This document shows, piece after piece, positions 1,808-59,116 of a DNA stretch of 64,000 bases (its first letter is position 1; each line of letters begins with the position of its first letter). This DNA is from a virus. Below the pieces are notes generated by a model. The model saw only the letters and a list, made by a program, of their open reading frames with translations. It did not search any database and was not told the origin of the DNA. The stretch is from positions 32,001 to 96,000 of the IMG/VR virus record IMGVR_UViG_3300043449_002191, one strand, 5' to 3'. Both the position numbers and the translations under genes were made by a program.

Positions 1808-4000
1808 ATGGCTAAGCTTACTTTTGAAGCCCAGATGAAGGGCTTTGAACAACTTAATGATATGTTCAAAAAAATCGAAGAAAGTCTTTACGATGTTTCT
1901 CATGCAGGAAACAAAGGCTTCGATGAAATGAACAGCAAAGTAAAAGCTTTGCATGATACCCTCGGCAATCTAACAAAATCTCAAGATTCAATTGGAAGAA
2001 TACTAAAAGAGTACACTAACGTAGGTGATGATACTATTGGTATCGTTAGAGATATGAACAAAGGTATTGTAAGTGCCATGAAAGAAGGCACAGCAGCCCT
2101 TAAAAACGAAATTTCTAATATTAGATCAATGATTAGAGATGAGCAGAACAATTTAGCCACATTAAAAGCTAATTCTAAGCTATTCACAGAAGAAGAGCGC
2201 CAACAAATGCATGGCGAAATCTCTAAAAGAATTACCACTTTACAGGGAATGCAAGTCACAGCAGCAACTTCAGTTGCTGATGCAGAACGCCAACAAGCTT
2301 ACAAAGCGTCTTTTGTTGGTAAAATGGGCGATTATTTGGGCACAAAAGTAAATTTGCCTTTTGGCGCTCAAATGACTAGAGGTGCATTGATAGGTGGAGC
2401 GGCTGCACTTCCTGGAGCTGTACTTGGAATATCTAGCTATGCAGTAACTGAACAGATGAATCCCCAAAGAACTTTTATGGCTCAAAGAGATTTAGCAATG
2501 CAAACTGCCGGAAGAGCTATGGAAGGCGACCCTACGTTATACATGATGCAGCAAATGGGTTTAGGGGCGGCTAATGCTACTGAACAGTCTATGGCATTTA
2601 AAGCTAAAACTTCTATGCAATTCTTAATGCAAAATCCTCTTGGCGGAGCCGTTATGGGAGGATTGGCAGGCTTTAAACTTGGTGGTCCATGGGGTGCGCT
2701 TGCAGGTGCTGCAGCAGGTGCTTTTGCTGCTCCGAATAAAACTTACGATACCGTATTAGCGGAAGCAAAAATGCAACTAAGAGAAGAAGATCAAAGAATG
2801 GGTGAAACGGTTTTTAAAACCGCAAGCGAAGGTTATAGAAGTGAATCCAGAAACTTAGACCTTGCACAAAGATCTATGGGTCGTGAAGAAGCCCAGCGTC
2901 TTACTAGAATTGGGTACAGAGCAGGTCTTTTATCTGAAGAAACCGCAGATGAAATAAATGCTATAGCAGGACTTGGCGCTTCTCCTTATATGTCAGCAAA
3001 TTATCTTAAATTAAGAAGACGTTACGGTGTATCTGGTGCTATGATGGATAGATTAAACCAGACAACAGCTCTTTCTGGAAATTCTGAAGTTGCAAGACAA
3101 GATATACTGCAAATGTATGCAAATGCTGGTATGTATGGATCAGAATCATATGGCTCTAGAATGGAGCTTTCTAACTTCATGGCCAGCATGATGCAAGGTC
3201 GTGGACCTGGAACTTCTGCAGCAGATGTTGGCGGCACAGTATCAACATTGATATCCCAAGGAACTGGGAATATCGGTCTTAGAACTAAATCTGCAATTCA
3301 AGCAGTTTCAACTCTTAATGAAATGAAAAAAGGCCCTACGGCTTTAAATGCCCTTGAAACATCTACCTTAATGAGCATGGGTATTACAGACCCATTTATT
3401 ATTCAGAGCCTTATTCGAAGAGGCTTAGGCACAAAAGAAGTCCAGCAAGATATAGCTAATGCTACAGGAATTCCTTTACCAGATGTTCAAGCAAAAATTG
3501 GCGGCATTAATACTACCATGTTAGAACAAGCTAAGAATTTTGGAACAGAGACATCTAGACAGCAAGCAGCTAAAATGAAAAGAGACTATGACACCATGGT
3601 ATTTATGGGGGATGAAGCTGCAGAAAGAGCGGCTCAAGGAGTAGGATATACCTATAAACAAACCCTTGCAGCAGAATATGGGACCAAAAGCGCAGGTAAA
3701 TTTAATTTAGTCCAAGAAACTTATAGTCAAGCAGATGTCCAAGCTGCCGGAAAAGCTTCGGAAATCGAAGCGTCTTATAAAAATATGGAAAAAATGATTA
3801 GCGAAGTTGGTGGAGATTTATCAAAAACTGTTATTCAAGCTATAAACGAATCAATTTCTTTTGGGTTTAATCAAGCAGTTATGCAGATGGATTTAACTAC
3901 AAAACAACTTTTAAGCGAAAAGAAAAGAGATCAGGCTAGTAAGAGTAAAGTTGAAGCTGAAGAAATCAAATATAATGCTCTTGATAAAACTCGATATTAA
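1808..4000 (+). CDS. tape measure protein
   Basis: 730 aa, Ala/Gly/Gln/Met-rich and helical, with a GLAGFKLGGPWGALAGAAAG hydrophobic stretch; lies between chaperone and baseplate genes. Confidence 0.75.
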   Translation: MAKLTFEAQMKGFEQLNDMFKKIEESLYDVSHAGNKGFDEMNSKVKALHDTLGNLTKSQDSIGRILKEYTNVGDDTIGIVRDMNKGIVSAMKEGTAALKNEISNIRSMIRDEQNNLATLKANSKLFTEEERQQMHGEISKRITTLQGMQVTAATSVADAERQQAYKASFVGKMGDYLGTKVNLPFGAQMTRGALIGGAAALPGAVLGISSYAVTEQMNPQRTFMAQRDLAMQTAGRAMEGDPTLYMMQQMGLGAANATEQSMAFKAKTSMQFLMQNPLGGAVMGGLAGFKLGGPWGALAGAAAGAFAAPNKTYDTVLAEAKMQLREEDQRMGETVFKTASEGYRSESRNLDLAQRSMGREEAQRLTRIGYRAGLLSEETADEINAIAGLGASPYMSANYLKLRRRYGVSGAMMDRLNQTTALSGNSEVARQDILQMYANAGMYGSESYGSRMELSNFMASMMQGRGPGTSAADVGGTVSTLISQGTGNIGLRTKSAIQAVSTLNEMKKGPTALNALETSTLMSMGITDPFIIQSLIRRGLGTKEVQQDIANATGIPLPDVQAKIGGINTTMLEQAKNFGTETSRQQAAKMKRDYDTMVFMGDEAAERAAQGVGYTYKQTLAAEYGTKSAGKFNLVQETYSQADVQAAGKASEIEASYKNMEKMISEVGGDLSKTVIQAINESISFGFNQAVMQMDLTTKQLLSEKKRDQASKSKVEAEEIKYNALDKTRY

Positions 4001-7752: not shown

Positions 7753-10368
7753 ATGTCTATTCCAAAAAAGTCTATTCCAAAATCAGTATCTGACAAGATG
7801 CCATCTTCTGTTACTGAAAGTTTAAATAAAGCCCAAAAAGCAGTGACTTCTTCTATAGTAGATATATTAAAAGCTCAGACACAAGCTGCTATTGACTCAA
7901 ACTTAATGTCTAATTTTTCTCGATTAAAAAACACTGATTTTAATGCAAGTGTTAATGAAGATTTTTTTGTCAGATGGGAAGCTTTAGATAAAATTGATTA
8001 TAACGCCTCTTATTCTTATGATCTTCTTATTGTAGATAATGATACAAGCAAAATTAAGCATTCCTATACTTTCCCCATAAATCCTTCGTCAATAAGTATT
8101 AATGTACCAAGTGCGTCAAGTATTGAAACAACAATGAAGGGTATCGTGGTAACTGAAAATGGAGCGCCTCTCAGACAGATATCAATTAGCGGAACTACAG
8201 GTACAGCACCAGTTAGAAACTTTGGTACAACAGGGGCTGATAAAAGTGAAACAGAAAAAACATTAAATTATCTGTTTAAAAATACTATTAAAGCGGTAGA
8301 TACACTTAAAGAAACCTATAAAAAAGCTCAATCTGTCGGAAGTCAACCAAATGGAGGGTTTGAAGGCCCCTTAAATTTAGAATTCTCAGAAACTTATAAA
8401 ATATCTGTTACTGGATATGAAAGTATACACGATTTAGCCAGATTTTTAGATATTTATATGGCTCTTAAAAAACAATCTCAATACAGATCTTATAGGCTTA
8501 TTTTGGCCATGCATAAAGATCAAATGTATTATAAATGTAAATTAGACAATTATTCTATTACCAAACAGGCCGGAACATTAGAATATAGCTATAACATTAA
8601 TTTCACAGCTTTCCAAAGATTGCCAAATATAAATGAGTATATTGGTAAAAATGGAAGAAAGCCAAAGAATGGTTTAGGGGATTCAAGAAATGCATTAAGC
8701 GCAATAAGTCAGGCATTTGCTTCAATTAAAAAAACTAGACAAATACTTGCAGACGCTCGAAATGTTTTAAAAGGTATAAGAGGCGATATCAATGATAGTA
8801 TTATACAGCCAATGAGTGATATGAATTTAGCCTTAAAAGACATACTAGGGATTGCAATGGATGCATCTGATTTCTATAATCACGGTACAGCTCAGTTTAA
8901 TAATGCTATAATTCACGCCTTAGCTACAAATCAGGCTTTTACAGCAGAAGGTGTTCAAGGTGAGGATACTATCGGTGGAACTCCTAGTATGATAGGTTCT
9001 GCAAAAGAAGATTTAGATAATAAAAGAGCTGAAAATACCCCAGATGTGGAAGAATCCAGAACACCAAATGCAAGTCCGACTCAAATCATAAAACAAGACC
9101 CACTGGCATTTCAAAGGCTTCTAGAAAAGATTGATTTAGACACATTAGAGCTAACCGAAGAAACTAAAGATTTAATAGACCAAAGGCTGGATGAAGTTAG
9201 AGCATTAACTTCTGTTGATTTCATGCAAAGGCGTGAATTAGTAGCCGATTGCGTTAGATCTATATCTGAAGCTTTTGGCGGTGGTTCTACTACATATAAT
9301 AGAATCATGGGCGTAGAAGAGCCTAAATTTACATATAAAAAACTTACAGTTGATGACATTATCCTATTAAAATCCTTAAATGACGCTGTACTGGCATTTG
9401 ATTCTTTTTGTGCCCATCTAGAAGAAGCTGAAAATGAAGTACAGGAAGACTATTATAGTTTTTACCAAGACTATGCTATTTCTGCAGGAATTCCATTTGA
9501 AACTAACTCATCCAGATTCTTTGTGCCGTTTCCATATGAAGCCACATTAGAGCAAGTAGCCTCACAATATTTGGGTGACCCTGAAAGATGGATTGAAATT
9601 GCAGCAGTGAATGGATTGAAGGCACCATATATAGACGAAATTGGTATAGAAATACCAGTCACAGCTAGTTCGGGCGGCAATACCTTAACAGTCTCTTCAG
9701 ATTTAGGGTTTTACGTAGGACAAGTTGTACAAATATTCTCTGATACTCAAAAGACTATTAGACGAAAAGTCAGGTCATTAGATGTGTTTTCTGCAATAGA
9801 AACCATTATAACTTTTGAAGAATCAGACGATAGCGTTAATTTAAGCCTTTATAAACCTTCTCAAAACGCTAAAATCAGGCGATATGCACCTAATACGGTT
9901 AATTCTAATATGCTAATTGCTATTCCATCAAATACACCTGCTACATTTAAGAACATTAAAACTTCACCTGAAATATCTCAATTAAATGGGCTAGCTCGGA
10001 TGGCCGGAATAGATATGATGTTAAGCAGCTCAGGAGATATCATTTTAATGGGTGGTGGTGAAGTCAAAATGGCAACTGGACTAACTAATATAATTCAAGC
10101 GGCTATGCTGAAATTAAACACAAAGCTTGGTTCCATGATTCAGCATCCAGACTATGGTAATGGCATAGAAGCAGGCAACCCTACATCGGAAGTTGACTTA
10201 AATAGCGTTATTCAAGATATTAATAACTCATTTGGCGATGATGAAAGATTTAGCGATATAATAGGCGTAGAGGTTAAAAAAGAAGGCCCAAGTCTATCAG
10301 TCTCGATCTTAGTAGGGCTTAGTGAAACTGATGTAGTTTTACCTATTTCAGCACAAGTTCCGATTTAA
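7753..10368 (+). CDS. multidomain baseplate protein (tube-initiator-like, LysM-like and gp25-like regions)
   Basis: N-terminal 'FPINPSSISI...ISISGTTG'; central 'TLEQVASQYLGDPERWIEIAAVNGL' (LysM-like); C-terminal 'LKLNTKLGSMIQHPDYG...DERFSDI' (gp25/GpW-like). Confidence 0.7.
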   Translation: MSIPKKSIPKSVSDKMPSSVTESLNKAQKAVTSSIVDILKAQTQAAIDSNLMSNFSRLKNTDFNASVNEDFFVRWEALDKIDYNASYSYDLLIVDNDTSKIKHSYTFPINPSSISINVPSASSIETTMKGIVVTENGAPLRQISISGTTGTAPVRNFGTTGADKSETEKTLNYLFKNTIKAVDTLKETYKKAQSVGSQPNGGFEGPLNLEFSETYKISVTGYESIHDLARFLDIYMALKKQSQYRSYRLILAMHKDQMYYKCKLDNYSITKQAGTLEYSYNINFTAFQRLPNINEYIGKNGRKPKNGLGDSRNALSAISQAFASIKKTRQILADARNVLKGIRGDINDSIIQPMSDMNLALKDILGIAMDASDFYNHGTAQFNNAIIHALATNQAFTAEGVQGEDTIGGTPSMIGSAKEDLDNKRAENTPDVEESRTPNASPTQIIKQDPLAFQRLLEKIDLDTLELTEETKDLIDQRLDEVRALTSVDFMQRRELVADCVRSISEAFGGGSTTYNRIMGVEEPKFTYKKLTVDDIILLKSLNDAVLAFDSFCAHLEEAENEVQEDYYSFYQDYAISAGIPFETNSSRFFVPFPYEATLEQVASQYLGDPERWIEIAAVNGLKAPYIDEIGIEIPVTASSGGNTLTVSSDLGFYVGQVVQIFSDTQKTIRRKVRSLDVFSAIETIITFEESDDSVNLSLYKPSQNAKIRRYAPNTVNSNMLIAIPSNTPATFKNIKTSPEISQLNGLARMAGIDMMLSSSGDIILMGGGEVKMATGLTNIIQAAMLKLNTKLGSMIQHPDYGNGIEAGNPTSEVDLNSVIQDINNSFGDDERFSDIIGVEVKKEGPSLSVSILVGLSETDVVLPISAQVPI

Positions 10369-29116: not shown

Positions 29117-30200
29117 GTCTTTTTACTTGCATTAACTCCTCAATTAGCGCAGGAATAAGCAGTGATTCCATTTGCGTGAGTAATTCTGGCTTCATTCTAC
29201 TGATAGCAAGCTGGAATGGTGTATTTTCTGCTAACAAAACATCGTCGTATTTTTGATTTTCGTCCAACATAGCTGCCCTCCTTAAAGTAAATCAGTCTTT
29301 TTAATCTTAGGCATCATGCTGCCATTTTCATACAAAACGATTTCTACTTGGGCTTCATATTTATCCAGAGTAGAAACAGTTAACTTATTGTCACCCATGT
29401 ACAAGTTAACGGACTCAGAGTGAGTATTTGCTTCAAGCCACTGCAATGCCTTTTTAAGATCTTTTATATCAATTTTCATACGTTTGCCCTTTATTTTTTA
29501 GATATTTAAAAGTCCAATCCCATAGCCGATAGCCCCACCAACAAGTCCAGCTATTAAATGTCTAGAAATGGCAGGAATATTGAATTCTTTGCCTAGTTGG
29601 TGGATTGCCTGCCCTGTAACAAACGCTAAAAATAATGCTAAAGCCAGTTTCATACATCCTCCGAGCCTTTAATCTATTATATCGCAAAACCTTAGTCCTG
29701 ATTTAGCTTTTCTAAATCTTTTTTAGCTTCATTTAATTCTGCGATAATTTTGTCGATACTCAGAATAACGCCGTTTAAAACGTCTTCTTTGCTGAATCCA
29801 TAAACGTAATCTTTAATAAGTATGTGCCCATCCAGTGATGTATCTTTACCTTTGCCATCATCTTCTATGCGTACACTAACAGGACTATTGTATTGTTTTT
29901 TATTTTCCCAGACTTTCATCTTGGCCTCCTATTCATTTTAATCTACTATTCATTATAAAGTGAATAGACCAATTAATATGCTTTTTAGTAATAATACACC
30001 TCAGAACTAGTAGACTCCCCTTCAGGCTTTTCAAACAAATCTAAGCAATCCAAAAAGCACTGATGTATGCTCATATGTTTTTGCTTAGTTTCTTTGTTTA
30101 ACTTTTTGACAGTTGCACTAATATGATCTATAGATGTGTAAATTTGCTTATCTTTTTGCTTCCATTCCCCATTATCGAATACTATCACGACCCATTTCAT
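29082..30200 (-). other. cluster of small hypothetical ORFs (29082-29270, 29282-29479, 29498-29653 membrane protein, 29692-29919, 29985-30200)
   Basis: Co-oriented ORFs with GGAG/GAGG RBSs; no recognisable domains. Confidence 0.6.
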
Positions 30201-30394
30201 TCAGGCTCCCAGTCATTTGCCCATTCCAGCCACGAAAATTCATGGACTGCTTTCCTAATTTGACGTTTAGGTGCTTCCATCTTAACATTTTGCTCCATAA
30301 AGTCAAGGATATTTTCTAATACCTCTTCTCTTACGTCTACATTATTATTACTAAGATGCGCTTTTAGCTGTTTAATTGCTTCACTTCGTTTCAT
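30197..30394 (-). CDS. MKRSE...WEPE family mini-protein
   Basis: Starts MKRSEA and ends WEPE; flanked by both junction repeats (the 3' one truncated). Confidence 0.75.
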   Translation of the reverse strand: MKRSEAIKQLKAHLSNNNVDVREEVLENILDFMEQNVKMEAPKRQIRKAVHEFSWLEWANDWEPE

Positions 30395-32112
30395 CGTTGA
30401 CCCCTCATTTCTTTAATTTGATCTTCTAATTCGCTAATGGTATTTAATAAAACCGAAATAATTCTGTAATTTGAAGGAGGTGTATCTAGCCATTCAAATT
30501 CATAGCCCTTACACTTAGATTGTAAATCAATTTTTAGCCATGTATAATTTGAACTTGCGCGGCACCCTAAAAATTTGCCATCCTCACTTATAACCATGCC
30601 AAAACAATTATCATGGTCTGGTGTCATCGGAAATCCATATGCTTTCATTTTAATCTCCTGACAAAATAATAAGTTAGCCCAAACCAGCGAACGGATGGTT
30701 TATCTGCATTAAGGATAATAATTTTACCGCTGGGGGTTTTGTATAGTGATCTGGCGGCCTTTAGGTCATTCATGAACAATCCTCCTGATAGCCTTCCAGC
30801 AGATATACCCAGCCTCACCATTCACATCATCGGTATTATGGTATTCAGATGCTTCCTCCAGTGCCTCAATAGCAAGGTCTAGTTTTTTCTGTAATTCTTC
30901 ATAGGCGGAATATTCAATAACGTGAATAGCATTGCCACGGAACTTTTCAGTATCTTGTTCGTAAATATATGCAGATTTAACAGAGGGGTTGTCTACATTT
31001 AAAATGCTGTCAATCCAAAACTGTTCAGGCTTTTGATTGCTCATCTTCAGATTCTCCTCTATTGGCTGTTAATATTTTAAGGAAATTGTCTGCTGCGGTA
31101 TTTGCTAAGTCATACTGGTCTGGGAGCTTATAGCCTCTTTTAGACAACTCATCAACAAATGCCACGGCAATATTTGACTGCCAAGCAAACCAATACCCAA
31201 TATCTTTTTTCAATTCAGCAGATAAATGATCTATAGCTTCTTTAGTTTCCATCTTTAAGCTCCTTTAAAACAATTCTAGCTAATTTTCCACCATACATCA
31301 TGTAGCTATCATGGGGCTCAAGGTCTCTATTTGTGATGTTTTTGTACACGTCTTTCCAGTTAGGGGTAAGACCACCCTCAGCAACTAGCTCCCCTCGGTC
31401 ATTGTACATTCCATTATAGTTCCAATTGTTTTTGTCTGCATAGAATTCTAACGCTTCAATAGCTTTTCGTAGTTTAAATTTAAGATCTTTAGTAGAATCG
31501 GGCATTATCTACCTGCCTTTTTAAGGATTTCTCGTAAATCATGCTGTAAGTCCTTGTATTTACTGTAAACTTCCTTATATTGAGCAATAAATGTATCATC
31601 CAATTCGATGCCATATTCTTCTAAATAGTCTTCGCCAAACATTTCAATAACTTCTTCTTGATCTTTTAGGTACAGCTTAAACCTATCTTCTTCATTTATA
31701 ACGACTTTACGTTTCATCTTTATACTCTCCACCAGTCATTAAAAAGCCAATTTGATTGGCAAGTTTAGTATTGCCAGCTCTAATTAATGAGTTAATTAGA
31801 GCCACTGAACTATACTCTCGTCCAGTTCTCTCGGCATCATATCTATCTAAAACAGATTGTGCCTCCTCATCAGTGTAGCTTTTTTGAATAACATAGTCAA
31901 GTAAAATTTGTTCAGGTGTTTTCACGGTCTAGCTCCTGTAAATAAAAACTAATAAACGAAAATGCGAGAAGAGGTGACATTATCGCAAGGATTCCTAAAT
32001 AACCATTTATTTCTATTGCGGATAACACCATAAAGGTATATCCCACTACAAGGACGGCAAGCGATATTAGCAAGATGGAAGCTTTCAAAAATGCTTTAAT
32101 AATCTTATTCAT
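30391..32112 (-). other. run of coupled small hypothetical ORFs (30391-30648, 30766-31044, 31025-31252, 31242-31505, 31505-~31717, 31707-31925, 31912-32112)
   Basis: Overlapping stop/start codons; 31912-32112 has two hydrophobic helices; 30766 and 31242 share AIEALE. Confidence 0.65.
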
Positions 32113-32314
32113 CTTCAGGCTCCCAAGCGTTTACGCCTTCTAGGTCCGATCCTAGCGCTTTAACTTCTGGTGGTAACATTCCTAAATCTTCCATAGCCAA
32201 TAATAATTCACTAGCAACCATTTCCCAGTATTCTTTTGGGTCTCTCTCAGTATAGTCCATTCTCGGTGTCATAATAACTTGAGCCATATATTTCACCATT
32301 TCACTTCGTTTCAT
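32105..32314 (-). CDS. MKRSE...GMLPP...WEPEDE family mini-protein
   Basis: All three family motifs present. Confidence 0.8.
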   Translation of the reverse strand: MKRSEMVKYMAQVIMTPRMDYTERDPKEYWEMVASELLLAMEDLGMLPPEVKALGSDLEGVNAWEPEDE

Positions 32315-32561
32315 CTTCAACCTCTTTTAAAGAATCCAAAAACTTCCAGAATATATGTAAGTGAAATTTACTAGGGCTCACTGGAGAGTATTCACCACAG
32401 TCTGGGCATCTATAGGCCACAATTCCATCATATATGCCAAGAAAGCCGCCGTCAATGCCTATTTCGCGTTTCCAGACATATGGGGGACTATAGTTGTGTT
32501 TAAGATCATCTGGAATTTCCTCACCAATCCAATTTGAATTACATATAGGACAGTTACTCAT
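32301..32561 (-). CDS. zinc-ribbon-like small protein (copy A)
   Basis: CPIC...CPDC; near-identical to 33229-33489. Confidence 0.75.
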   Translation of the reverse strand: MSNCPICNSNWIGEEIPDDLKHNYSPPYVWKREIGIDGGFLGIYDGIVAYRCPDCGEYSPVSPSKFHLHIFWKFLDSLKEVEDETK

Positions 32562-32775
32562 CTTCAGGCTCCCATAAGCATTCGCTAGATACTAAAGTAT
32601 TACCGTTATCTTGATCTATATACCTAATTGTTTCTGGGGGTAGCATGCCAGCTTTTTCTATTTCTAATAATAAGCCACTAGACATGGTAATTCTATCCTG
32701 TTCAGTAGAACAAGTGCTAGTATCATTATCTTTTATCCAGTCTGCTAGGATTTTAAGGATCTCACTTCGTTTCAT
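32554..32775 (-). CDS. MKRSE...GMLPP...WEPEDE family mini-protein
   Basis: C-terminal half identical in protein sequence to 33482-33691. Confidence 0.8.
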   Translation of the reverse strand: MKRSEILKILADWIKDNDTSTCSTEQDRITMSSGLLLEIEKAGMLPPETIRYIDQDNGNTLVSSECLWEPEDE

Positions 32776-33007
32776 CTTCAATCCCTTCGTTTAAAGCCGC
32801 AATCAATGCATCTGCATATTTTAGCGCTGCTGCTGCTGTTAGTTTACCAGTGTCTTGATAGTCAGGAAAAAAGCTTGCGTTATGTGATATTAGCCCTTGC
32901 ATCGCCAAAGCTGCAAAATGCTCACGTTTAGTTAAGCCAACGCATTGACCTACACCGCCATTATCAGCAAATGTTACTCCTATTGGTTCATGTGGGTTAG
33001 TTTTCAT
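32762..33007 (-). CDS. hypothetical protein (GLTKREHFAALAMQGL...ADALIA type)
   Basis: Start ATG lies inside the 17-bp repeat; this motif type is common in phage small proteins. Confidence 0.7.
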   Translation of the reverse strand: MKTNPHEPIGVTFADNGGVGQCVGLTKREHFAALAMQGLISHNASFFPDYQDTGKLTAAAALKYADALIAALNEGIEDETK

Positions 33008-33242
33008 CTTCAGGCTCCCACTCATACACATCTGGCAATTCCCCTAGAGACTTTCCATCCATGCTGGTCACTTGGTAAGTTTCCAATGGAGGCGGCAACA
33101 TACCGAACCCCTCAATCATATCTAGTAATCTAGATGCTCTACGCTTAAAGGTAGCCTCTTCTGTCTCATTACCGTGTTTACCATTCACTTCAGGGTCGGC
33201 CAGTTCATCAGCCATTAAATCTATCATCTCACTTCGTTTCAT
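32997..33242 (-). CDS. MKRSE...GMLPP...WEPEDE family mini-protein
   Basis: All motifs present; N-terminus MKRSEMIDLMAD is nearly identical to that of 33691. Confidence 0.8.
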   Translation of the reverse strand: MKRSEMIDLMADELADPEVNGKHGNETEEATFKRRASRLLDMIEGFGMLPPPLETYQVTSMDGKSLGELPDVYEWEPEDEN

Positions 33243-33489
33243 CGTTGACCTCTTTTAAAAAATCCAAAAACTTCCAGAATATATGTAAGTGAAATTTACT
33301 AGGGCTCACTGGAGAGTACTCGCCGCAATCTGGGCATTTCAAAGCCACAATACCATCATATATGCCAAGATAGCCGCCGTCAATACCTATTTCGCGTTTC
33401 CAGACATATGGGGGACTATAGTGATGTTTAAGATCATCTGGGATTTCTCCACCAATCCAATTTGAATTACAATTAGGACAGTTATTCAT
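33229..33489 (-). CDS. zinc-ribbon-like small protein (copy B)
   Basis: CPNC...CPDC. Confidence 0.75.
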   Translation of the reverse strand: MNNCPNCNSNWIGGEIPDDLKHHYSPPYVWKREIGIDGGYLGIYDGIVALKCPDCGEYSPVSPSKFHLHIFWKFLDFLKEVNDETK

Positions 33490-33691
33490 CTTCAGGCTCC
33501 CATAAGCATTCGCTAGATACTAAAGTATTGCCGTTATCTTGATCTATATACCTAATTGTTTCAGGGGGCAGCATACCAGCCTTCTCCATCTCCTTTAAGA
33601 CAAGGACCATTCTATCTCTAGTGGTATAACTATTCGTTGTGAACTTAATATAGGTATCAGCCATTAAATCTAACATCTCACTTCGTTTCAT
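33482..33691 (-). CDS. MKRSE...GMLPP...WEPEDE family mini-protein
   Basis: All motifs present; apparently chimeric. Confidence 0.8.
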   Translation of the reverse strand: MKRSEMLDLMADTYIKFTTNSYTTRDRMVLVLKEMEKAGMLPPETIRYIDQDNGNTLVSSECLWEPEDE

Positions 33692-34226
33692 CTTCAGACT
33701 CCTTCTCATTGGCTATCTCCACAGCAAATAATAGATTTAGTTCTTGTTGGGCAGCAACATAAGCAGCATCAGCAGCAGCGGCAGCAGCATAAGCAGCAGT
33801 AGCAGCGGCATCAGCAGCATAAGCAGCAGTAGCAGCAGCGGCAGCAGCGGCAGCAGCATAAGCAGCATAAGCAGCAGCATAAGCAGCATAAGCAGCAGTA
33901 GCATAATAAACAAGTTGCTTATTATTTTCTTTAATTATTTTTAGATAGAGTTCGGCAGCGTTAATTGCTTTTCTTGGTCTTTTGTCATTAGGATACTTTT
34001 CTTCAAAGACATGTAAAACAGATGATGCACATTTTAATGCAAATTTAACATTCTGTTGTTTTGTAAACAAGTTTGTAATTACCCAAATTTTGTCTGAATA
34101 ACTAATATTTTCTAATAATACAAAATCTTCAATATTATTATCAAAATCTTTGTAATGTTCTAAAAAATTATCAAATCTATTTTTGCAAGGATTTAACTTT
34201 TCTATAATTTCTTTATTAATTTTCAT
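33678..34226 (-). CDS. hypothetical protein with an Ala/Tyr low-complexity tract (Imm5-like region)
   Basis: FALKCASSVLHVFEEKYPNDKRPRKAINAA followed by AYAA repeats. Confidence 0.7.
   Translation of the reverse strand: MKINKEIIEKLNPCKNRFDNFLEHYKDFDNNIEDFVLLENISYSDKIWVITNLFTKQQNVKFALKCASSVLHVFEEKYPNDKRPRKAINAAELYLKIIKENNKQLVYYATAAYAAYAAAYAAYAAAAAAAAATAAYAADAAATAAYAAAAAADAAYVAAQQELNLLFAVEIANEKESEDETK
33750..33905. repeat. triplet-based microsatellite (GCA/TAA units) encoding a poly-Ala/Tyr tract
   Basis: Iterated gcagcagcataa / gcagcagta units. Confidence 0.9.
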
Positions 34227-34443
34227 CTTCAGGCTCCCAGTCAACTGCTACTCTAAATGTATAATGCTTTCCTTGGCCATCCTCAATTGTGGGCTTCATG
34301 CCTCTATTCTCAAATTCACCAAGAATAAAGTCAACCATTTTTCTTGGGCTAGACGATATATTGCTGTCAATGTACTCTGCAAAGATATTAGCCACAGCCT
34401 CCACCATCTCACTACGTTTAATTTTTCCTACTCCTCGATACAT
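34216..34443 (-). CDS. MKRSE-family mini-protein (IKRSEM...GMKPT...WEPEDEN), start uncertain
   Basis: Family motifs present; the codon at the usual start position is ATT. Confidence 0.7.
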   Translation of the reverse strand: MYRGVGKIKRSEMVEAVANIFAEYIDSNISSSPRKMVDFILGEFENRGMKPTIEDGQGKHYTFRVAVDWEPEDEN

Positions 34444-34637
34444 GATACCCCCAAAGAGCTTTTAATTCTGTAGCAGATCTTTCCTGATTCTTTATCAAAA
34501 TACCGCTCTACATCATCCCAAATAGGTCTTTCATCTTCTATTATATCTTTTTTCTTGTCTAAGTTCAGGTGTATTGGCCCAGACTCAATACAACCCGAAG
34601 TCAAAAGCGCTGCTAAGACTATCACTTCCTTAAGCAT
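34428..34637 (-). CDS. small lipoprotein
   Basis: Lipobox LTSGC; paralog of 34622-34828. Confidence 0.7.
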   Translation of the reverse strand: MLKEVIVLAALLTSGCIESGPIHLNLDKKKDIIEDERPIWDDVERYFDKESGKICYRIKSSLGVSCIEE

Positions 34638-34828
34638 GAAATTCCTCTAGCGTTTCTAACAGTATAGCAAACCACGCCGTATTCCTCGTCAATATAACGC
34701 TCAAGGTCAGATGTTCCTCTGCTTTCTTGTTTAATTCTTTTGTCTAGGTTTAAATGTTTACGGCTAAACTTTTTGCCACAACCAGAAAACAGCATAAGCC
34801 CAATAATTACCATTACAATTTTTTTCAT
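34622..34828 (-). CDS. small lipoprotein
   Basis: Lipobox LFSGC; ERYID...CY...GISC shared with its neighbour. Confidence 0.7.
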   Translation of the reverse strand: MKKIVMVIIGLMLFSGCGKKFSRKHLNLDKRIKQESRGTSDLERYIDEEYGVVCYTVRNARGISCLRK

Positions 34829-35319
34829 GGCCGCACTCCTTTAACCAAAGTCAAAAATGAAAGCTTTTCATTCAGGCACATTTTTGTAGTATCTGCTAGA
34901 ACAAACTCTTTTGGAGTCTGGGGATAATATACATCACCTTCGATAACTTTATCAATTACAGTCATGTAAATCTTATCAGTCATAGGGAGAGTCTTTTCAT
35001 AGATAGCAGCCCCACCGATAACAAAAACTTCACCTGTTTTATCTAGACCTTTAGCCAACTCAATGGCACTTTCAATGGAATCCACAAACTTAAGATTCTC
35101 GGTCTCTTTTATAGCTTTGGGTTTAGAGGTGATGACAATGTTCATGCGATTCTTTAGGGGTGATTTAATAGACTGGAAGGTCTTTCTGCCCATAATAACT
35201 ACATGGCCCGTAGTCCTAGCTTTAAAGTAAGCCAGCTCTTCAGGGATATACCATGGGATAATTCCGCCACGTCCGATAACACCATTTTTAGCCATGCAAA
35301 CAATATGAGAAAGCGTCAT
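34825..35319 (-). CDS. folA: dihydrofolate reductase
   Basis: NGVIG...IPW.IPEELAYFK.RT.GHVVIMGRKTFQSI..PL.NR.NIVIT and FVIGGA.IY motifs. Confidence 0.95.
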   Translation of the reverse strand: MTLSHIVCMAKNGVIGRGGIIPWYIPEELAYFKARTTGHVVIMGRKTFQSIKSPLKNRMNIVITSKPKAIKETENLKFVDSIESAIELAKGLDKTGEVFVIGGAAIYEKTLPMTDKIYMTVIDKVIEGDVYYPQTPKEFVLADTTKMCLNEKLSFLTLVKGVRP

Positions 35320-39085: not shown

Positions 39086-39346
39086 TCACTTCCATTTAGG
39101 TGCCCCTGAAACTTCTTTTAAAAGGTCTTTGCCTTCGTTCACGCATTTATTCATAAGCTCTTCGTTTTCAGTAGGCGAGCTATCTTTTTCAATGACGCAA
39201 TTAGCTATAGAAACGGCACATTCTTCTTTGCTATCTTTTGTGATATATGGACTGTTAAATTGACACAACATGGCAATCACAGTTACTACTTTATCTAGCG
39301 AAACCATTTTAATCCTCCCACTTATATTTATTTTCAATCCAAGCAA
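39086..39346 (-). CDS. hypothetical Cys-containing protein
   Basis: Likely start MVSLDK near 39307. Confidence 0.55.
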   Translation of the reverse strand: MLGLKINISGRIKMVSLDKVVTVIAMLCQFNSPYITKDSKEECAVSIANCVIEKDSSPTENEELMNKCVNEGKDLLKEVSGAPKWK

Positions 39347-39527
39347 ATGCTTCTACCCCATGAGGTATTACTTTAGTCCGAATGGGCGGCGGAACCATCC
39401 CCACCATAGATTCACAATGAGTCAATACAATTTCAGCCAATTCGTCAGAGTTAATATCATCACCTTGTCCTTCAAGGTATGTATCAATTGCCATTTTAAG
39501 CACCTTTAAAGCCTCGTCCCTTTTCAT
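39309..39527 (-). CDS. divergent MKRSE-family mini-protein
   Basis: MKRDEAL...GMVPPP...WED. Confidence 0.65.
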   Translation of the reverse strand: MKRDEALKVLKMAIDTYLEGQGDDINSDELAEIVLTHCESMVGMVPPPIRTKVIPHGVEAFAWIENKYKWED

Positions 39528-58051: not shown

Positions 58052-59116
58052 TTATGATAATGCTTTTTCTTCAATCTTTTTGAGGAGTTCTTGCTGGAGA
58101 CCTTCGTCATCACGAATTGCCGTCAAACAAGCAACAAGACCACGGTAGCTGTTTTCGCCAATTTTGTAGGTTACGTTATTTGGTCGCTCAATGATACCCA
58201 TGTTTTTAGCCAATGTAAAGATCTCTTCATACTGATTGATGATACCTTTGTTGTAGTCCAGAGTAAACTCAGCAGTTCGGCCAGAGAACCCAACCGATGA
58301 CTCTTCAATCCTAAAACGAATTTTATGGCCAGTTTTTTGCGCTTTGTTCATAAAGTCTACTACAGATTCATCAGAAAACTCTTCGCCATCCAATGTAACT
58401 TTACCTTCTTTTGATTTATTAGGCTCAGTATAAGCAAAGAACTCAAACATATGTTTTGTAGCCCAAGAAGCAGCCATCTTAACCGTTTTACCACGCATCT
58501 GTTCTTTCATATCCATTTCTGCACGGATATGGGCAGTACAAACAAGCGCAATGTTATACTTACGGATAACTGGCAAGATCATCATTAACCCGTCTTTTAA
58601 TGTAAGGGCTTGGTCACCAATCTGTTGAGTAAGAATTGTGTCAGCGTTCTGAGTCCTGCGACCAACAATATTAGAAAGAGAGTCGATGATGACTAATTTA
58701 ATTGGAGCGCCTTCTTGACACATAGCTGCAATCTCGCCAGCAATACGGTCAAAAATATGCTCAGGCTGATTCACATCATAAGTCAAAAAGCGATCTTCAT
58801 CAATTCCCCATTTAGCCAGTGAAGAGCTGTTAGATTGGAACTTACTACGCATTTCCGTATCAAACTTAATAGCAATAGCTTCTGGGTCTGATTTATGTAA
58901 CCCTCCAATTAAGGCATTCATCATGATTGATTTACCTCCTTTTGGTGGACCATATAAAAGCATGGACATACCAAAAGGGAGTCCGTTTCCTGCTGTAGCA
59001 AAAGTCCAGTTTACGGATGGACTCGGAGTTTTGAGGCAATTTTTCATTGCATCATCACCTTTGCTAACATCCACAGCACCTTCTAAATTTCTAAGTTTTG
59101 TAAGCCATTTACTCAT
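58052..59116 (-). CDS. recA: RecA/UvsX-like recombinase
   Basis: LYGPPKGGKS, FDTE and VIIDSL motifs; C-terminal LDYNKGI...E.F.LA...GII. Confidence 0.85.
   Translation of the reverse strand: MSKWLTKLRNLEGAVDVSKGDDAMKNCLKTPSPSVNWTFATAGNGLPFGMSMLLYGPPKGGKSIMMNALIGGLHKSDPEAIAIKFDTEMRSKFQSNSSSLAKWGIDEDRFLTYDVNQPEHIFDRIAGEIAAMCQEGAPIKLVIIDSLSNIVGRRTQNADTILTQQIGDQALTLKDGLMMILPVIRKYNIALVCTAHIRAEMDMKEQMRGKTVKMAASWATKHMFEFFAYTEPNKSKEGKVTLDGEEFSDESVVDFMNKAQKTGHKIRFRIEESSVGFSGRTAEFTLDYNKGIINQYEEIFTLAKNMGIIERPNNVTYKIGENSYRGLVACLTAIRDDEGLQQELLKKIEEKALS

Follow-up and report, generated by a model that had tools for sequence, protein, structure and literature searches.

The array described here is a co-directional run of small accessory genes in a hyperplastic region of an uncultured phage of approximately 157 kb, in which copies of one short gene, termed the linker, stand between unrelated genes, termed cargo. 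It lies on the minus strand of a 64,000-nucleotide stretch (the window), which corresponds to bases 32001–96000 of IMG/VR record IMGVR_UViG_3300043449_002191; the record is complete, with 157,341 bp and direct terminal repeats. The linkers belong to a real, very large and unnamed protein family. To judge from codon usage in many copies, their termini are under selection at both the protein and the nucleotide level. The linker is, on balance, probably a portable translational junction with three crossover patches, a coding, translation-level analogue of the promoter-early stem-loop (PeSL) cassettes of T4-type phages. The architecture, nucleotide-level constraints, mosaicism and duplication endpoints that bear on this proposal are evident in the sequences themselves.

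Organization of the linker array

From position 34443 down to 32105, five paralogous linkers of 69–81 residues (A to E) alternate with five cargo genes, as established from the listing of open reading frames (ORFs) and by direct reading. The cargo encodes an Ala/Tyr-repeat protein, a Zn-ribbon protein, a protein with the motif GLTKREHFAA, a second Zn-ribbon protein and a 66-residue hydrophobic protein; a sixth linker–cargo unit lies at 29985–30394. Every boundary in the array is an overlap of 4, 8, 11 or 14 nt. Two junction repeats each occur in five exact copies, all on the minus strand: TGGGAGCCTGAAGATGA at 32109, 32558, 33004, 33486 and 34223 (spacings of 449, 446, 482 and 737; 0.02 copies expected), and GATGAAACGAAGTGA at 30381, 32301, 32762, 33229 and 33678 (0.15 expected).

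An earlier reading of this DNA from its letters and ORFs (the sequence-only reading) had described the two repeats, the five alternating pairs with their sixth unit and four codon strings for an internal GMLPP motif. The repeat counts, positions and spacings were reproduced, the ORFs and overlaps are as described, and all four strings occur as written. The six linkers align, with invariant columns KRSE, L, E, M and WEPE; that reading had lacked a seventh, divergent copy (MKRDEA...KWED; 39309..39527, minus strand), which lies outside the array and was found by a whole-genome profile search (E 1.5e-7). Linker A (75 residues; 34216..34443), at the edge of the array, is an atypical copy that ends in WEPEDEN: the family start position holds ATT, Arg3 is encoded by CGT, GMLPP is replaced by GMKPT, and the N terminus is extended by seven residues.

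Dual constraint on the linker termini

The ends of the gene were compared in 45–49 distinct DNA copies, some taken from the window and others from unrelated viral contigs found with a canonical linker as lead sequence. The 5′ end has the form ATGAARMGNAGTGAR, an ATGA...AGTGA pattern with ATGA in 44 of 45 copies and TGA at +11 in 41 of 45, and ATGAAAMGNAGTGA, at the same end, contains TGA stops in both alternative frames within the first 14 nt. Long upstream ORFs stop at +1 (13 cases) or at +11 (17 cases), which gives the upstream genes their tails DETK, DEKK or DEEK before the stop codon. The 3′ end reads TGG GAR CCN GAA GAT GA throughout the family, so placed that GGAG is followed 7 nt later by the ATG opening the downstream ORF; TGGGAGCCNGAAGATGA at this end holds both GGAG and ATG. 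In the array, GAGG or GGAG also lies 6–7 nt ahead of the ATG of each linker. Stop and start overlap and the Shine–Dalgarno (SD) sequence lies inside the upstream gene, the arrangement of translationally coupled pairs.

The invariant internal GMLPP provided a within-gene control for codon choice. The motif's Gly, Leu and Pro codons, like those of Lys2 and Pro66, are free to vary in other phages, where Arg3 is encoded by AGA (19 copies), CGA (5), CGC (4) or CGT (3). Ser4, in the same copies, is AGT in 28 of 31 (background 18%), the Asp/Asn codon of the tail is GAT nine times, AAT four times and GAC never, and E65 is GAG in 7 of 13 (background 29%). It is the synonymous sites forming the TGA and the ATG that stay fixed. 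Start codons persist even in variant tails: WEPENE is written GAAAATGAG, which keeps the start codon as AATG, and WEPESE is written GAGAGTGAA, which keeps it as GTG. Among 201 proteins, the fourth residue after the conserved Trp (W+4) belongs to the -AT codon classes (D, N, Y or H) in 174 of 192, with the chemically closer E in only 13, and W+5 falls in the G-initial codon class in 179 of 184. Two claims of the sequence-only reading find support here: that the 3′ end provides the next gene with its SD and ATG, from the codon statistics across unrelated phages, and that the protein is selected while its ends carry an additional DNA-level constraint, from the codon control.

Within one lineage the codons are more tightly fixed. 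In the window and the 154.8-kb genome of a sister phage (L001), Arg3 is CGA in 11 of 12 copies, and Pro66 and E65 are CCT and GAG, respectively, in all seven copies, with the GMLPP codons saturated. This lineage-specific freezing could reflect exchange or gene conversion of junctions, or RNA-level selection; that the same codons are frozen in two diverged genomes (orthologues approximately 55–60% identical) favours selection or continuing exchange over independent conversion.

Exchange at three conserved patches

The two Zn-ribbon units, both present as the sequence-only reading had stated, are more precisely one duplication of approximately 355 bp at approximately 93% identity, with copies at 33235..33590 and 32307..32662, 928 bp apart on the minus strand. 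Identity climbs to at least 90% at the EKAGMLPP of the upstream linker (around 33590/32662) and falls away where the next linker begins, at MKRSE (around 33235/32307), so that the copied unit is a linker C-half together with its cargo. The units involved are linker B (69 residues; 33482..33691) with its Zn-ribbon gene (CPNC...CPDC; 33229..33489), and linker D (73 residues; 32554..32775), whose C-half is identical to that of B, with the duplicate gene (32301..32561).

Family-wide, identity in the N-half of the protein is uncorrelated with identity in the C-half (Spearman −0.01 over 16,290 pairs). The statistic was repeated on a subset clustered at 90%, which removes the bias of 50% clustering, and was −0.014; there, the C-halves are unrelated in 31 of the 33 pairs with a common N-half, as are the N-halves in 13 of the 18 pairs with a common C-half, and both identities are high in only two pairs. 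Mismatches of both kinds can arise only by recombination at GMLPP. The C-half and the downstream gene travel together in the comparisons of linkers B and D of the window, of loci L013 and L021, and of L004 and L021. Other DNA loci have a shared N-half beside unrelated upstream genes, which places a breakpoint at the 5′ junction, and loci L020 and L007 have the whole linker in common (C-half 0.93) with unrelated downstream genes, which places one at the 3′ junction. The genomic contexts of the most informative mosaic partners (P0007, P0009, P0031 and P0008) were sought in metagenome contigs, from which a degenerate DNA pattern for the shared C-half retrieved nothing and a protein-based scan with P0031 retrieved only a 37% relative.

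The sister phage has a different arrangement between the same flanks, an Imm5-like gene and a gene containing QILLDYVIQKSY. Its Zn-ribbon gene lies directly upstream of the Imm5-like gene with no linker between them, followed by a linker, a different cargo gene of 151 residues, a linker, a linker fused to a sigma70-region-4-like helix-turn-helix (HTH) domain, and a final linker; cargo order and content differ between the two phages. The sequence-only reading had placed recombination in the repeats. The marks of PeSL-type exchange, namely duplication endpoints in linker patches, a sister that differs between conserved flanks, and mosaic halves, agree with it, as does the linkage of the C-half to the downstream gene. 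Its breakpoints at the junctions hold, and it had missed a third, the most active, inside the linker at GMLPP.

In the mechanism that we propose, the linker 5′ end would stop an upstream ORF of either frame at, or within 14 nt of, the linker ATG, and the 3′ end would supply an SD and a start codon to the following gene. The paralogues are saturated everywhere except in the three patches (5′ end, GMLPP and 3′ end), which alone retain DNA identity; homologous recombination would for that reason use these patches as its crossover points. An exchange at any one of the three would regenerate an intact hybrid linker and a correctly coupled neighbour, so that cassettes such as a C-half with its cargo could be duplicated, swapped or lost without breaking expression. 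The scheme presupposes coupling that works in the cell, an exchange enzyme of the RecA-like or annealing type, and selection for shuffling. The phage RecA invoked by the sequence-only reading is present, as a RecA/UvsX-like match (PF00154; 32.4 bits, above the cut-off) at 58511..59059 on the minus strand, within an ORF of 358 residues; it would be a candidate recombinase for homology-driven exchange.

Integrase, RNA structure and transcription signals

The 100% complete 157-kb genome contains no match to the tyrosine recombinase family PF00589 (positive controls, 14 of 14), and no attC-like inverted repeat recurs at the junctions. The array is thus integrase-free, as the sequence-only reading had held, and a true integron-like system is in practice excluded; its term 'integron-like' does not apply as a statement of membership, since integrase and attC-like structure are both absent and nothing points to site-specific chemistry. 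The RNA of the junctions folds no better than shuffled sequence (z −0.85 to +1.64), and an RNA element at the junctions was rejected on this ground. A scan with a sigma70-type consensus gave 29 sites, compared with 26.6 expected, none recurring at junctions, and no terminator-like site lies within 31912–34443.

A large family of small acidic proteins

A word-indexed search returned 511 homologues of the linker, and an exhaustive profile search returned 4,511 cluster representatives at E ≤ 1e-3, of which 482 were at E ≤ 1e-10. The linker protein has no match in Pfam or PHROGs. Three family members used as tblastn queries against 50,697 deposited phage genomes gave none at E ≤ 1e-3 and only chance matches at E ≤ 10, and megablast of the array region found no close DNA relative among deposited phages. 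A structured DNA pattern matched only four sequences in 185,579 prokaryotic species genomes, all contigs of metagenome-assembled genomes, and so offers no evidence for prophage residence and no host assignment. A literature search for 'WEPEDE' found no mention.

Members have approximately 74 residues and are acidic (median pI 4.6; net charge −7). Near-invariant positions are K2, R3, S4, E5 and M6 at the N terminus, L, E, G, M, P and P in mid-protein and W-E-P-E at the C terminus. An AlphaFold2 model of linker E (69 residues; 32105..32314), built from a 65-sequence alignment, has a pLDDT of 82.6 and predicts helices at residues 3–15 and 26–43, forming a two-helix hairpin, followed by a small β-hairpin and an acidic tail. 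The layout is thus MKRSEM, helix 1, helix 2 ending in IEKAGMLPP, a variable hairpin and WEPEDE. The best profile match in the Protein Data Bank (PDB) is a designed repeat protein (E 0.019), Foldseek with the model found nothing in the PDB at E ≤ 0.001, the best VIA Z was 4.7, to generic helical hairpins, and the ESM Atlas held no informative relative. Synonymous change has left its amino acids conserved, and the linker protein therefore probably has a function of its own, apparently not specific to any cargo.

In-frame fusions of linkers directly after WEPED join them to a NADAR domain, to a sigma70-region-4-like HTH and to three unannotated domains. The NADAR fusion is P0123 (PF08719, 1.9e-39), and the HTH fusion lies at 8892–9329 on the plus strand of L001 (PF04545, 2.8e-5). 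NADAR domains remove ADP-ribose, and some cargo may therefore be counter-defence genes. Fusions of two linkers also occur in the family; P0162 (99 residues) joins a linker N-half that runs as far as LEGAE straight onto a second, complete linker, and looks like the product of an unequal crossover between the GMLPP and MKRSE patches.

The exact 17-mer of the linker tail occurs in 19 other viral contigs, in five linkers and nine C termini of terminase large subunits. It was rejected as a family marker, given the nine terminases among the 19 contigs and our estimate that several matches are expected by chance. The terminase large subunit (Terminase_6N/6C) at 2243–3493 on the minus strand of L025 ends in DWEPEDEVAGY, and the same ending, with the same 17-mer, is found in eight more viral contigs (L027–L029, L033, L035, L037, L038 and L042). 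The likeness could be convergence on an acidic Trp tail or a shared partner-binding motif.

Cargo and neighbouring genes

The first cargo gene (33678..34226) starts at an ATG embedded in the GAAGATGA of linker A and ends in SEDETK with a 14-nt overlap with linker B. Its product, the Ala/Tyr-repeat protein, matches the Imm5_like family PF21805 above the gathering score (26.5 bits, cut-off 25, E 6.3e-6), falls just below it for Imm5 (PF14423; 24.3 bits, cut-off 25), and is related to phrog_38757. Positions 33740–33925 (minus strand) hold a long imperfect GCTGCT(TAT) repeat with a 9/12-nt period, which encodes AAYAAAA tracts. In the sister phage the tract of the Imm5-like orthologue (L001, 7412–8014) is longer and patterned differently (AARAAAYAADD), and the repeat therefore looks variable in length between relatives.

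Linker C (81 residues; 32997..33242) belongs to an EGFGMLPP subfamily common to the sister phage and to distant contigs. It precedes the GLTKREHFAA gene (32762..33007), which matches phrog_2201 (1.4e-10). Linker E is followed by the gene for the 66-residue hydrophobic protein (31912..32112), with about two transmembrane segments. In the sixth unit, the gene upstream terminates at the ATGA of linker F (65 residues; 30197..30394), which itself ends in WEPE and overlaps the next gene, an ORFan of 71 residues (29985..30200), by ATGA. All of these genes are on the minus strand.

Homologues of the Zn-ribbon cargo also occur in L044 and L045 without flanking linkers, and the gene beside the homologue in L045 is a weak full-length match to the GLTKREHFAA cargo. 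Elsewhere in the family the genes next to linkers are varied and include an endonuclease VII, a 2OG-Fe(II) oxygenase, a UDG-like protein, an RlaP nucleotidyltransferase, a SLOG protein, a DUF2201 metallopeptidase/VWA protein and many ORFans.

Two adjacent paralogous genes of approximately 68 residues (34428–34637 and 34622–34828, minus strand) sit between the array and a DHFR gene (34825–35319; PF00186, 2.6e-47). They have lipoprotein-like N termini (LFSGC and LTSGC) and similar C termini (GVSCIEE and GISCLRK), and neither matches Pfam. Just downstream of the array, non-linker genes are joined on the minus strand at 31041–31050, 31242–31252 and 31707–31720 by similar junctions, ggagaatCTGAAGATGAgc and aaagATGAAACGTAA, the latter yielding a KDET tail followed by a gene that starts MKRK. 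These may be remnants of linker junctions or the general coupling style of the phage.

Alternative explanations

Several observations weigh against the proposal of a portable junction. The codons frozen in both the window and its diverged sister fit RNA selection at least as well as gene conversion. K2, R3, E(W+1), P(W+2) and E(W+3) are near-invariant despite synonymous variation, which indicates strong protein-level selection and means that much of the conservation of the ends has a protein explanation. Tight overlaps of the ATGA type are generally common in phages. The conserved patches, at 15–20 nt, are short for RecA-type exchange, and the relatives at hand are too diverged (orthologues approximately 55–60% identical) to catch recent shuffling. 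Of 24 related loci, about 14 contain only one linker within ±8 kb, and approximately 10% of family proteins bear the tail that marks a directly following linker. Linker–linker tandems (L001, L015, L017, L019, L020 and L036) are about as common as linker–gene–linker arrangements (L001, L014, L020 and L024). Alternation is therefore not required. Strict alternation, which the sequence-only reading had described for the array, fails as a family rule, and so does a fixed tie between cargo and linkers, given the cargo homologues that lack them.

In one alternative, the linkers would be ordinary small acidic early proteins encoded in multiple copies, acting for example in host takeover or counter-defence, with a constant scaffold and a variable hairpin; their termini would be conserved for protein function, their overlaps would be normal phage gene packing and their recombination would be incidental. 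Terminal amino acids are kept through synonymous change (R3 as AGA or CGN; P66 as CCT, CCA or CCG), the fold is predicted with confidence (the pLDDT given above), the proteins are acidic, singletons are common, and candidate counter-defence neighbours exist in the Imm5-like protein and the NADAR fusion. We nevertheless hold this explanation to be somewhat unlikely, as it does not account for the preference for AGT over AGC or TCN at Ser4, for a W+4 position that tolerates N yet not E and avoids GAC, for the start codons that persist in variant tails, for the full decoupling of the halves or for duplication endpoints that fall exactly at conserved patches. If instead the linker were an adaptor or chaperone, its variable C-half would bind the protein encoded downstream, in co-translational assembly, and its conserved pole would dock a common partner. 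Natural fusions to a following domain right after WEPED, and the co-variation of the C-half with the downstream gene in three comparisons, speak for such a role. Physical linkage, however, predicts the same co-variation; the C-half common to L020 and L007 precedes unrelated genes, cargo homologues occur without linkers in L001, L044 and L045, the cargo ranges from 66-residue membrane proteins to metallopeptidase/VWA proteins of 395 residues, and linker–linker tandems have no cargo at all. We regard an adaptor as improbable.

The invariant Pro-Pro of GMLPP, often followed by E or P, and the obligatory overlap with the next start would also suit a regulatory leader ORF, in which pausing at these prolines or at the acidic, Pro-containing tail tunes downstream translation. 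EF-P-dependent polyproline pausing is the remaining basis for this idea, which we consider very improbable: approximately 60–70 nt separate the Pro-Pro from the next start downstream, a distance over which a stalled ribosome could not act directly, there is no RNA structure to be unmasked, and the model predicts a well-folded protein whose helix residues are conserved. Least credible of all is a strictly integron-like system, dedicated to gene capture at specific sites. Only the repeated junctions and the cassette-like layout suggest it, whereas the complete genome has no tyrosine recombinase and no attC-like inverted repeats or hairpins, the breakpoints fall at three different patches, one of them internal, and the repeats belong to the normal coding sequence of an ancient protein family. 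Beyond the portable junction that we favour lies a reading that we think unlikely, in which the linker is a protein-coding 'universal joint', a new class of phage element that would spread and persist by making the genes flanking it expressible and exchangeable: it would end an upstream ORF of either frame, restart translation for the following gene and provide three safe points for crossover. If true, it would drive gene capture and shuffling across thousands of uncultured phage lineages without a dedicated recombinase.

Comparison with known systems

It has long been asked how phages come by the small accessory genes of their hyperplastic regions, keep them expressed and exchange them, and to our knowledge the non-coding PeSL of T4-type phages is the only well-documented vehicle for such exchange. 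The linker family, absent from Pfam, PHROGs and deposited phage genomes, carries what appear to be the signatures of a translation-level equivalent. If this is confirmed, annotators would gain a marker for mosaic joints in metagenomic phages, a compact natural module would be available for coupling the expression of arbitrary genes, and the recombination 'linkers' of Botstein's modular theory would have a concrete, testable case. Even on the most conservative reading, the linkers define a new and very large family of small phage proteins that evolves in an unusual way.

PeSL cassettes (Arbiol et al. 2010, PMC2839356; Comeau et al. 2014, PMC4122927) are non-coding elements that work at the level of transcription, through a sigma70-like promoter and a terminator stem-loop, and their mini-circles have been demonstrated by experiment. 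Both elements are short, conserved and repeated between small non-essential genes of hyperplastic regions, both carry expression signals, and recombination between copies leads to insertions, deletions, replacements and duplications of the ORFs that they bracket. The linker repeat differs in being a protein-coding gene of approximately 210 bp that would act at translation (stops in both other frames, an SD and an ATG), without promoter or terminator signals and with an extra internal breakpoint.

At its junctions the array resembles the ATGA and TAATG stop/start coupling of operons, in which the stop overlaps or abuts the next start and the SD lies inside the upstream coding sequence; in the linker, however, these signals are heritable, family-defining termini, conserved at synonymous sites across unrelated phages and receptive to either upstream frame. 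With integrons it shares a co-directional array of unrelated small genes and a recurring element that ensures their expression from upstream, but it has no IntI integrase, attC, attI or site-specific chemistry, and its recurring element is translated. In the modular theory of lambdoid phages (Botstein), short conserved 'linker' or boundary sequences at the joints of modules were proposed to guide exchange. Conserved homology at the joints between otherwise unrelated segments is common to both; whereas the lambdoid boundaries are short sequences between genes, the joint here is itself a gene family of more than 4,500 clusters, and crossovers inside it would regenerate a functional hybrid gene.

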